Positions 10,763 to 25,320 of a stretch of 25,320 nt of DNA are shown here, piece after piece (position 1 is the first letter of the stretch; every line of letters starts with the position of its first letter). The notes under the pieces are model-generated. The model saw only the letters and a list, made by a program, of their open reading frames with translations. It made no database searches and was not told where the DNA came from. The stretch is from a virus. Its lineage: Duplodnaviria > Caudoviricetes. The translations under genes and the position numbers were made by a program. The stretch is from IMG/VR virus record IMGVR_UViG_3300020374_000851, positions 1-25,320 of that record, one strand, 5' to 3'.

Positions 10763-10996
10763 ATGTTTATACAAATAGCCCCTAAGGTAAAAGTTTATGT
10801 GACGGATTCACAGCTAAGATTTATAAAAAAATATTCTAAGGCAACTTTTAAAAATACAGATTTATTACCAGAAGAAATGGAACTTGCTAAGACATTGGCT
10901 GACAAAGCCATATTTGTAAGGAAAAAACTTGACATTGGGGTACAATATGCTTTAAATAAACGCATAAGATTTGTACACAATGGCACTACAAAATAA
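10763..10996 (+). CDS. Small basic hypothetical protein
   Basis: 77-aa ORF in operon context. Confidence 0.6.
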   Translation: MFIQIAPKVKVYVTDSQLRFIKKYSKATFKNTDLLPEEMELAKTLADKAIFVRKKLDIGVQYALNKRIRFVHNGTTK

Positions 10997-23434: not shown

Positions 23435-24654
23435 TGGCAAATAAAAATTTGTTATCACTTGCCGAAAGTGATCCTAACTTTTCAAATCAAGCTTTAGAAA
23501 ATGCAATAAACAATTTAAAAATTGGCTGGGTTACCAAAAGTATTACATTAGATGATACAATCACAAGTAATGCTGTGTTAACAAATTCACAAAAAACAGA
23601 TCTTAAAGCCACTATCAACAACCATGCTCATATAAATTTAGGAAGACAACTGAATGACATGTTAAAACACACTAACACTGTGCTTGACGGATCTATAATT
23701 CCTGCTACAAGTATCGCAGAACAAAGGACTTTCCTAGATTTGTTGCAAAATGTTCAAAGTGTACAAGGTTTGGTCATTGACCTATTTGGTGTTGATGCAA
23801 CTGATAAAAATAGAGGAGTAAATGATCATTTCGGTACACTTAATAATTTATTTCTTGAGACTGAAGACAGCAGTAAACCTGTGTTTACCCAATTACAGGA
23901 GGTTATTGATTTTATTACTAGGGCAAATTTGGCAGCCGATACTGCGTATCAAAATTCACTCACAGACTTAACAAACTTTATTAATAGCACAGTAGCAGAT
24001 TCTACAGATTTTCAACAAACACTTGATGCTTTTGCTACATCCGCAGCCTCCGCAGCCACAAGTTTCAACAACGCATTAGGCAGTGAGCCATATTTGACAG
24101 AAAGAACTAAACTTATAAGTGACACAAATAAAATAAACACACAGGTAACTTTAGAAATAAACAATCTTAAATCCATTGAATCTTATGCTACAGACTTAAC
24201 AAACAACATAGCATTCACAAGTTTAGCGGAGGATACAAATCTACGTAATTTAATAGCAAGAGTGGCCCAAAATCCTAACTGGGTTAAATATTTTTCTGAA
24301 TATGAAGACAGCGAGACTGCACTAAATCCTATTTTTGATACCGATACAGATTCAGATAAAAGTTCAGTAATAGAGCAGGCTTTAATTACAAAAGGACTGC
24401 CTGATGTACTAGACCATACAGATATTTTAGCAGTAGCAAAGAAGGCAAAATTAGACGACAGAATAAACACCGCTGGTTTTGAATTATTGACAACAGAGCA
24501 GGTTATAGAAAAATCTTGCCAGCAACTTGGAATAAGTCTTTTTGGAGATGTTTTCAACAGAAGCAAAAGATTGCTGAACAATCTAAATCAGAGAGATAGG
24601 GATCTTATCCTTGCTGACCTTAATGCCAACGAAGACAGTAACACTTTAAGTTAA
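23434..24654 (+). CDS. Helical N/T/D-rich putative baseplate/tail-associated protein
   Basis: TAATG coupling to the PAAR gene, no enzyme motif. Confidence 0.55.
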   Translation: MANKNLLSLAESDPNFSNQALENAINNLKIGWVTKSITLDDTITSNAVLTNSQKTDLKATINNHAHINLGRQLNDMLKHTNTVLDGSIIPATSIAEQRTFLDLLQNVQSVQGLVIDLFGVDATDKNRGVNDHFGTLNNLFLETEDSSKPVFTQLQEVIDFITRANLAADTAYQNSLTDLTNFINSTVADSTDFQQTLDAFATSAASAATSFNNALGSEPYLTERTKLISDTNKINTQVTLEINNLKSIESYATDLTNNIAFTSLAEDTNLRNLIARVAQNPNWVKYFSEYEDSETALNPIFDTDTDSDKSSVIEQALITKGLPDVLDHTDILAVAKKAKLDDRINTAGFELLTTEQVIEKSCQQLGISLFGDVFNRSKRLLNNLNQRDRDLILADLNANEDSNTLS

Positions 24655-24800
24655 TTTTTGTAGTTACGTTTTTTACTACCGCCCATATAATGCTTGCTTG
24701 GTTCATAGTCCCATTTTTTTCCATGGTGGCCACGTATATCAGCGTACATCATTCTAAGTTTCACTAACATTTTTACTAACGGGTTGTGGTTCACTTTCAT
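24651..24800 (-). CDS. Small basic protein (49 aa) missed by the ORF track
   Basis: MKVNHNPLVKMLVKLRMMYADIRGHHGKKWDYEPSKHYMGGSKKRNYKN*. The ATG abuts the upstream stop (TAAATG). Confidence 0.7.
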   Translation of the reverse strand: MKVNHNPLVKMLVKLRMMYADIRGHHGKKWDYEPSKHYMGGSKKRNYKN

Positions 24801-25004
24801 TTATCTTCCAAGTTTCTTCTTTCTACCTAATGGTAATTTTTGTGTTTTGACAAATTCTTCGCCTGCCTTTGTCGTCCACTCAATAGTTACCATTTTTGCT
24901 TTAGAAGACCCTTGAAATGACTTAACAGCTTTTTTATAGGAAAGTGCTTCAACTTCCTTTATTTCTGTTCCATCATTTATTTTAAAAGTTCTCATCTTGG
25001 GCAT
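24801..25004 (-). CDS. Small basic protein (67 aa)
   Basis: Has its own promoter TTGACC-17-TAAATT-N6-ATG and is coupled to the 49-aa ORF. Confidence 0.75.
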   Translation of the reverse strand: MPKMRTFKINDGTEIKEVEALSYKKAVKSFQGSSKAKMVTIEWTTKAGEEFVKTQKLPLGRKKKLGR

Positions 25005-25010
25005 ATATCT

Positions 25011-25054
25011 AATTTAGCATAAACTTGACAAAAGGTCAATCTTATGCTTAAATA
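25011..25054. promoter_or_regulatory. Dyad-symmetric back-to-back promoter pair
   Basis: Plus strand: TTGACA 25025-25030, TTAAAT/TAAATA 25048-25054. Minus strand: TTGACC 25039-25034, 17 nt, TAAATT 25016-25011. Confidence 0.7.
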
Positions 25055-25059
25055 TCCTT

Positions 25060-25320
25060 GTGTACGTTGAAACATTTAGAATAAACGTTACGGACGTCGG
25101 GGCAGTACCGACCACCTCCACCATACTAGGATTGGTGGCTTATGTAATCTCTTTCGGGGGTGAACTAGGATCGACGGATGTGTAAAAAGATGTGGAGTAC
25201 GCCCAGTTGGTTCGAGGTAACGGCCAGTTTTAAATGCAAACACAAAAGCATTAGGATTTGCTGACTTAACAGTTGGTATGTCTGAACTGAGATTAGCGGC
25301 CTAGTCCAATAATTTCGGGG
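25060..25320 (+). ncRNA. ssrA: Circularly permuted (two-piece) tmRNA; acceptor piece about 25060-25123, intervening segment 25124-25155, coding piece from 25156 (3' end at or beyond the window edge)
   Basis: T-arm GTCGG-GGCAGTA-CCGAC then CACCTCC-A-CCA (ends 25123). Downstream GGGGGTG-AACTAGGATCGAC pairs 7/7 with it, including G3-U70. P2 pairings GATGT/ACGTT, AGATGT/ACATTT, GTACG/TGTAC. Tag frame 25236-25304 ends LAA*. Confidence 0.95.

Follow-up and report, generated by a model that had tools for sequence, protein, structure and literature searches.

A phage-borne permuted tmRNA gene with a conserved 22-residue tag in a clade of marine phages

The window analysed here is an entire virus record of 25,320 nt from a large uncultured marine phage. 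Its genes code for two virion structural proteins, for one tail-spike-like and one PAAR-like protein, and for NrdAB, and it ends within a tmRNA gene, about 35 nt before the 3′-terminal hairpin of that gene. The tRNA-like 3′ half of the gene, with its CCA, stands upstream of the 5′ half with an intervening segment between them, the arrangement that distinguishes a permuted tmRNA (Table 1). A 7-bp acceptor stem, a discriminator A, and a G3·U70 pair (G25158 opposite T25117) together give alanine identity at the sequence level, and the frame within the 5′ half has a resume codon, a stop codon, and the hydrophobic Ala-Ala end of a tag. An earlier note made from the letters alone had proposed a permuted tmRNA here, and the T-arm, ACCA, 32-nt spacer, GGGGGTG, and G3·U70 were all read in the sequence where it had placed them. 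Both checks that it had named, ARAGORN and a covariance model, recovered the gene: ARAGORN called one permuted tmRNA in the window, with the tag ANTKALGFADLTVGMSELRLAA*, and the only two Rfam matches within the window were to tmRNA_permuted (RF04321; 93.6 bits, gathering threshold 47, E = 3.2e-17, positions 25061–25268) and alpha_tmRNA (RF01849; 86.7 bits on the cut gene, gathering threshold 50, E = 1.7e-22). RF01849 also matched all three complete relatives across all 355 positions at 99.6–108 bits, in agreement with the alphaproteobacterial type that had been assigned to the gene, and no beta or cyano tmRNA model was listed for these three relatives in the Rfam search, for which the best model of the clan alone was retained. 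The 3′-terminal hairpin is visible in a relative that is 95.7% identical, and the alignment of relatives has compensatory changes at five of its pairs. The 5-bp T-stem is fully paired in 30 of 36 relatives, the other six having a GCUCGAU arm that is one base shorter. The gene is a real permuted tmRNA of the alpha type. That permuted genes are easily missed, as had been remarked, is apparent in this family, since ARAGORN called 33 of 42 members and gave a wrong short tag in four of the 33.

Table 1. Features of the permuted tmRNA locus, in positions of the window.
Feature	Position	Strand	Basis or remark
Divergent promoter-like site TTGACC-17-TAAATT	25011..25039	-	Consensus scan; overlaps the tmRNA promoter, kept in relatives
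Divergently oriented 67-aa ORF without a known family	24801..25004	-	Homologue near the tag in 28/42 viral loci
TTGACA, predicted -35 box of the tmRNA promoter	25025..25030	+	Sequence; 18 nt upstream of TAAATA
TAAATA, predicted -10 element	25049..25054	+	Hexamer shared with the bare boxes that precede several virion genes
Acceptor piece (tRNA-like 3′ half)	25061..25123	+	5′ end predicted; sequence and Rfam
T-arm GTCGG-GGCAGTA-CCGAC	25096-25112	+	Direct sequence reading
Acceptor 3′ strand CACCTCC, then ACCA	25113-25119, 25120-25123	+	Direct sequence reading
Intervening segment (spacer), 32 nt	25124..25155	+	Between ACCA and GGGGGTG
Acceptor 5′ strand GGGGGTG	25156-25162	+	Direct sequence reading
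Coding piece, 5′ part	25156..25235	+	Comprises GGGGGTG (G3 included), a D-loop-like part, a helix partner, and UAAAU ahead of the resume codon
Tag frame ANTKALGFADLTVGMSELRLAA, 22 codons, then TAG stop	25236-25301, stop 25302-25304	+	ARAGORN
3′ region	25305..25320	+	Cut at the record end; in relatives a terminal hairpin with the alpha-type ACCUGGCAACAGAA motif comes next

The genomic context of the gene was then compared across related loci. Forty-two viral loci were collected by tag pattern and searched for homologues of seven neighbouring proteins, at least one of which was found at all 42. The metagenome loci with the tag number at least 120, of which at least 115 have the full tag, and among those listed, 57 of the 58 that are at least 3 kb long have a homologue of a neighbouring phage gene. 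These results bear out the proposal that the tmRNA is phage-borne. The best cultured matches of the window proteins are to pelagiphages and cyanophages, at 41% for the DUF6267 protein and 69% for NrdA, and blastn detected no close copy in a cultured phage, returning short matches only. A 172-kb relative, G129, has matches to 22 of the 28 window proteins and carries DNA polymerase, clamp loader, baseplate, tail, and endolysin genes, according to an annotation scan that covered 103 of its 145 ORFs of at least 150 aa. CheckV completeness is 11–47% for related records of 23–172 kb, from which a genome size of about 200–400 kb may be estimated for the clade. One further candidate, L122, turned out to be a chance match within the gene of an 1821-aa protein and was dropped.

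The location of the tmRNA gene at the end of the record, together with the classification of three related records as provirus, could also be explained by a host ssrA that served as a prophage integration site and was caught at a contig end, and the flanks had accordingly been named as a place to look for continuing phage genes. Relatives run on into phage-like genes on both sides of the tmRNA, two syntenic ones having phage-like small ORFs without housekeeping annotation past it, and the gene sits inside phage contigs of 65–172 kb. In addition, the tag-coding part has no match in 401 alphaproteobacterial genomes (a search run without a positive control), and the 37 bacterial genes that were read have tags of 9–10 residues. 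With no bacterial chromosome on a side and no host-type tag, the integration-site reading is extremely improbable and was rejected. A degenerate pattern of the tag core matched 47 of the 401 genomes, and ARAGORN detected a tmRNA at none of the 29 loci scanned out of 30 listed.

The immediate neighbourhood is rearranged among relatives. The upstream 406-aa gene led to 25 loci, at 13 of which the tag lies within the flank, three in the orientation of the window and ten inverted. In most relatives (10/13 loci; for example, L124:7200-7930), the unit made up of the tmRNA, the palindromic divergent promoter, and the 67-aa ORF thus runs opposite to its direction in the window. Downstream of the 67-aa ORF lies a short ORF beginning MKVNHNPLVKMLV (24654-24771, minus strand), which is shorter than the ORF length cut-off applied and a homologue of which is present in L124. 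At its other end the window contains a sodium:solute symporter family protein (46-1098), cut at the record start, and G129 has a type I secretion-like set (L493:93-3443), in which a cadherin/RTX-repeat protein comes first and is succeeded by a TolC-like outer-membrane efflux protein and by an ABC transporter.

A permuted tmRNA in a marine phage is not in itself new: 53 two-piece tmRNAs have been reported among isolate phage genomes, and another 17 come from a set of 47 Melnitz-like contigs (Buchholz et al. 2022, PMC9004378). Like the Methylophilales phage Melnitz and pelagimyophage-like marine contigs, this marine phage carries a permuted alpha-type tmRNA (Melnitz and the contigs being of lytic phages; PMC9004378), and Melnitz shares the GGCAGUA T-loop and a composite TTGACA-17-TATAAATA promoter-like site. 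In contrast to the window gene, however, Melnitz encodes the ordinary 14-residue tag ANDNYVPVDYALAA; the DNA likeness between the two is confined to 34 nt of the T-arm and acceptor, the glnA (glutamine) riboswitch of Melnitz-like ssrA has no Rfam match in the window or in three relatives, and the Melnitz genome is 141 kb, compared with the 200–400 kb estimated for this clade. With the two-piece tmRNAs of alphaproteobacteria (RF01849/RF04321), the gene shares the permuted order, G3·U70, ACCA, a GGCRGUA T-loop, the UAAAU-GCA resume context, and the 3′-terminal ACCUGGCAACAGAA. The unusual part is the conserved tag of 22 residues.

To place this tag among others, tmRNA genes from bacteria and viruses were read for their tag, spacer, and T-loop. 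The bacterial set of 35 genes represents small-genome marine and freshwater alphaproteobacteria, namely five hand-picked ones, including Ca. Fonsibacter, and the best 30 of 110 matches in the order of the latter. Their tags are 9–10 residues long, their spacers are A/U-rich and of 5–13 nt, and their T-loop is GGCGGUA in every case (35/35), whereas the window gene has a basic tag of about twice that length, a conserved spacer of 32 nt, and the T-loop GGCAGUA. At 120 viral loci found with a general tmRNA motif, ARAGORN made 70 calls, which comprise 68 tags of 9–17 residues, one of the ANTKALGFADLTVGMSELRLAA family, and one that is doubtful. The short AN(D/E)-type tag of the RF01849 consensus is replaced by the 22-residue basic tag; since tag sequences vary across tmRNAs, the long tag marks a variant and is compatible with membership in the family. 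No description of long phage tags was found in the literature searched, which leaves out most subscription papers.

Because a search by tag pattern would select for the tag itself, a second collection was assembled with the spacer motif, which resulted in 62 loci. A complete tag could be read at 55 of these, of which 37 have 22 residues, six have 25 residues, and 12 are acidic with 14–15 residues; the remaining seven loci are cut or lack the required resume motif, and two of them were later called as 15-residue acidic tags. Substitution rates were calculated for the 26 distinct 22-codon frames found in this way, as pairwise counts among related sequences that are not independent. The ratio pN/pS is 0.05 for codons 5–13 (the core of the tag) and 0.00 for codons 19–22 (RLAA), compared with 0.66 for the linker and 1.32 for codons 2–4; third positions vary freely and the amino acids do not (pS 0.31, pN 0.015). 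The tag combines the invariant core (K/R)-A-L-(G/R)-F-A-D-L with an invariant RLAA, joined by a loose linker that is five or eight residues long; the 25-residue tags have a longer middle and retain (K/R)AL(G/R)FAD and RLAA. Judged by these rates, the tag is selected as a peptide, and it looks like a two-part signal. The LGF of the core was considered as a mimic of the IGF loop that docks on ClpP, an idea weakened by the LRF of three of the six 25-residue tags. The acidic tags (ADESYAHEELALAA, ADEYAYEEELALAA, and ANESFIFEEELALAA) belong to sister phages with the same conserved spacer (L400, L403, L409, L431, and their kin G134, G136, and G137), and some of the sister-group genes have the resume codon GAC rather than GCA.

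Part of the conservation of the tag may operate at the RNA level. Codons 7–16 lie within a conserved hairpin (25254-25283), whose six inner pairs over codons 9–14 are held in 29 of 29 sequences with one-sided changes only and whose outer pair changes on both sides in six sequences. The extra codons could thus mainly form a hairpin in the mRNA-like part of the RNA, in which case only the LAA end would matter as a peptide, as an ordinary degron. We regard this as unlikely, as free third positions with fixed amino acids argue for the peptide, the 25-residue variants alter the sequence 3′ of the core but keep (K/R)AL(G/R)FAD, and the folding energy of the region is unexceptional (z -1.3 to -1.5, weak support, with 22 of 200 shuffles as good). 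The RNA and peptide constraints on the core overlap. An Rfam alignment hint raised the idea of an ancestral stop hairpin that is read through after a one-base insertion; this was disfavoured because the 14–15-residue tags of the sister group share the final LAA-stop and the downstream sequence, which makes the extra codons internal. A second hairpin at the stop codon is absent from the alignment consensus.

The remainder of the gene is less uniform than the tag. Among the 36 loci with a 22-residue tag, seven types of T-loop occur, namely GGCAGUA (16), GCUCGAU (six), UUCAAAU (five), UUCGACU (three), UUCGAUU (three), UUCGAAU (two), and UGCAAAU (one). Pairwise identity averages 0.54 in the T-arm and 0.86 in the tag frame, and a single tag sequence is combined with three different T-arms, which points to exchange of the T-arm as a module among relatives. 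A further sign of module exchange comes from L145, L155, and L160, which have the same tag but an acceptor stem GGGGUGG/CCACUCC and a short, unrelated spacer. The usual pattern of conservation is reversed in this family: as the tag is better kept than the T-arm, and the same tag is found with up to three T-arms, the peptide seems to be what selection protects. The spacer motif is kept in 31 of 35 aligned genes. Pairing is predicted between TGGTGG of the spacer (25133-25138) and CCACCA (25118-25123), and between CCC at the 3′ end of the spacer and GGG of the other acceptor strand, and one guess is that the spacer times or guides processing. Folding energy lends the precursor no support (z +1.05).

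Transcription of the tmRNA from the TAAATA box used by late genes had been proposed in the earlier note, and the distribution of this hexamer was therefore examined. TAAATA occurs 15 times in the window, 14 of them on the plus strand, compared with 39.7 expected, and is thus both depleted and strand-biased. Seven plus-strand copies are bare boxes located 5–7 nt before an ORF start (2957, 6466, 7583, 9170, 11488, 17484, and 22848), which would imply nearly leaderless mRNAs, and four of the seven precede genes annotated as virion, tail-spike, or PAAR, which fits the label "late" that we infer for these boxes. In G129, 33 of 71 plus-strand copies have an ATG 3–9 nt downstream. No source for TAAATA as a phage promoter was found in the literature searched. 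The box is indeed present at the tmRNA, but it has TTGACA 18 nt upstream, unlike the seven bare boxes. The window has two copies of this kind, the other being at 10929-10958, upstream of a 170-aa ORF at 10971. In 41 of 43 long-tag relatives, TTGAC[A/T] is followed 17–18 nt later by TAAATA or TATAAT, and nine of all 62 loci have TTGAC[A/T]-17-TATAAT in place of the TAAATA box. Given TTGACA at the tmRNA and TATAAT in nine relatives, a host-sigma70-type promoter, or a dual early/late one, appears likelier than a pure late box. The two oppositely oriented -35 boxes make an inverted repeat, TTGAC-AAAAG-GTCAA; the consensus scan for the divergent site found two sites compared with 1.6 expected by chance and so is weak alone.

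Part of the stretch was present in 19 seawater RNA runs. Three of four runs compared, which come from four studies, have contigs that match the tag-coding part, although such matches record presence only and may include carry-over of DNA. One contig matches 151 nt of the tag-coding part without a mismatch, the spacer is included in several, and one extends across the promoter region; being assembled, these contigs cannot show RNA ends. The upstream 406-aa gene is almost uncovered in the RNA runs, which is evidence neither way. The short contigs with the deepest coverage lie at 25080-25124; their flanks differ from the phage, and they are probably derived from the tmRNAs of other organisms.

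An ordinary working two-piece tmRNA is the most likely explanation of these data. We consider it likely that the RNA would be transcribed from a host-sigma70-type promoter, cut into two pieces by host processing enzymes, and charged with alanine by the host alanyl-tRNA synthetase, that it would free stalled ribosomes with host SmpB and thereby supplement rescue during infection, and that the 22-residue tag would be added to the unfinished protein, which its Leu-Ala-Ala end would send to Clp protease. Of this explanation, the anatomy of the gene, its phage context, the conservation of its family, and the selection acting on the tag peptide were observed; processing, charging, use of host SmpB, and degradation would follow known two-piece tmRNAs. 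For bacterial two-piece tmRNAs, the host processing enzymes, alanyl-tRNA synthetase, and use of SmpB are established (PMC11915505, PMC9004378). Alternatively, the RNA could act as a decoy or competitor, sequestering host SmpB or ribosomes and damping host trans-translation, in the manner reported for phage DS6A, whose tmRNA is tag-less (a precedent noted in PMC11915505). The lower conservation of the tRNA-like part relative to the tag would agree with such a role; however, the DS6A RNA is without a tag frame, and the frame here is intact, under purifying selection, and ends in the standard LAA, which makes a decoy very unlikely.

The earlier note had pointed to smpB in the flanking phage DNA as a gene to look for; SmpB was not found in any of eight phage records, nor ClpP in any of ten, all of them fragments that are 3–47% complete, and the use of host partners is therefore assumed. 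ClpX is encoded in G129 (531 bits, NCBIfam cut-off 359) and in five of five further related records. The phage ClpX proteins are 51–52% identical to ClpX of the SAR11 order and have intact pore-1, pore-2, RKH, and ClpP-docking motifs (GYVG, RDV, RKH, and M/I-G-F), and their zinc domains differ consistently from the host ones. ClpS is present in five of five related records, and G129 encodes a ClpA-like ATPase (882 bits, below the cut-off of 993) as well as bS21, Hsp20, a DnaJ-like protein, and peptide deformylase. In the G129 genome, ClpX, bS21, Hsp20, and ClpS form a gene block (L492:1884-4353), and the ClpA-like ATPase elsewhere adjoins peptide deformylase and the DnaJ-like gene; SufB, superoxide dismutase, and a CHASE2 adenylate/guanylate cyclase are also encoded. 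Huge phages encode tmRNA and SmpB (Al-Shayeb et al. 2020, PMC7162821), and some jumbo phages encode ClpA, ClpX, ClpS, or ClpP (Iyer et al. 2021, PMC7824862). This clade resembles them in having tmRNA, ClpX, ClpS, and a ClpA-like ATPase and differs in that SmpB and ClpP were not found in its fragments; the parts of PMC7162821 and PMC7824862 considered here describe neither tag sequences nor a link between tag type and Clp genes.

ClpX recognises tags that end in LAA. The most likely reader of the tag would be ClpX, which the clade itself encodes, working with host ClpP, and a second contact with a protease component is probably made by the selected core. A stronger version of this idea is a private degradation channel, in which the core would dock a phage unfoldase (ClpX through its zinc-binding domain, or ClpA) so that tagged products bypass the host pathway without an SspB adaptor. 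The invariant core, the linker of variable length, and the invariant RLAA would suit such a channel, as would the phage ClpX, ClpS, and ClpA-like genes and the consistently different zinc domains. A tag spaced for SspB was also considered and rejected, as SspB was found in none of five SAR11-order genomes and none of five phage records in a search with Caulobacter as positive control, an absence that also agrees with a channel free of the adaptor. ClpX binds C-terminal residues, and in engineered tags the distance that separates the adaptor site from the ClpX site is known as a feature of their design (PMC8138137). On the other hand, the phage ClpX retains standard pore and RKH motifs, and a function in assembly or translocation has been suggested for the ClpX and ClpA of jumbo phages (PMC7824862). 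The phages with acidic tags, which form a sister group (16/45, 23/54, and 12/34 ORFs match the window or G129), also have ClpX and ClpS homologues, in two of three records, and the long tag is thus not tied one-to-one to phage ClpX. We consider the private channel possible but improbable.

The host was reexamined, as the GGCAGUA T-loop had been taken to indicate an alphaproteobacterial one. This argument did not hold up: no more than 16 of the 36 relatives that have the 22-residue tag show this loop, the sampled alphaproteobacterial genes all have GGCGGUA instead (35/35), and Melnitz carries an alpha-type ssrA and infects a gammaproteobacterial OM43 host (PMC9004378). As part of a module that is apparently swapped, the loop is not a host marker. 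Full-length cytochrome b of the bc1 complex is encoded in relatives on the plus strand (L123:4565-5815, L494:13489-14748, and L516:5121-6398), and this respiratory-chain auxiliary gene is inserted in L123 between nrdB and the PAAR gene. Among 600 matches listed, the best for a relative's cytochrome b is Ca. Fonsibacter, at 70%; within the order of Ca. Fonsibacter, three of 61 genomes match at 70–73% and the rest at 58–63%, and among 301 genomes sampled from the phylum, the match that follows is at most 62%. With Ca. Fonsibacter and two further genomes of that order as the nearest matches to the cytochrome b of relatives, a SAR11-like host seems reasonably likely, bearing in mind that a phage may have acquired an auxiliary gene from an organism other than its present host. 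A homologue search with bS21 gave no host name.

For phage biology more broadly, this family warns against predicting a host from the T-loop type of its tmRNA. The reversed pattern of conservation makes the question of what phage tmRNAs do directly testable. The data might conceivably reflect a worldwide clade of marine jumbo phages with its own disposal channel, in which a long, basic, two-site tag would be read preferentially by phage ClpX/ClpA without a host adaptor and the T-arm would be swapped freely for compatibility with host enzymes or escape from nucleases, although we hold this full picture to be unlikely. Should a phage unfoldase prove selective for the tag, the latter would constitute a natural orthogonal degradation signal.
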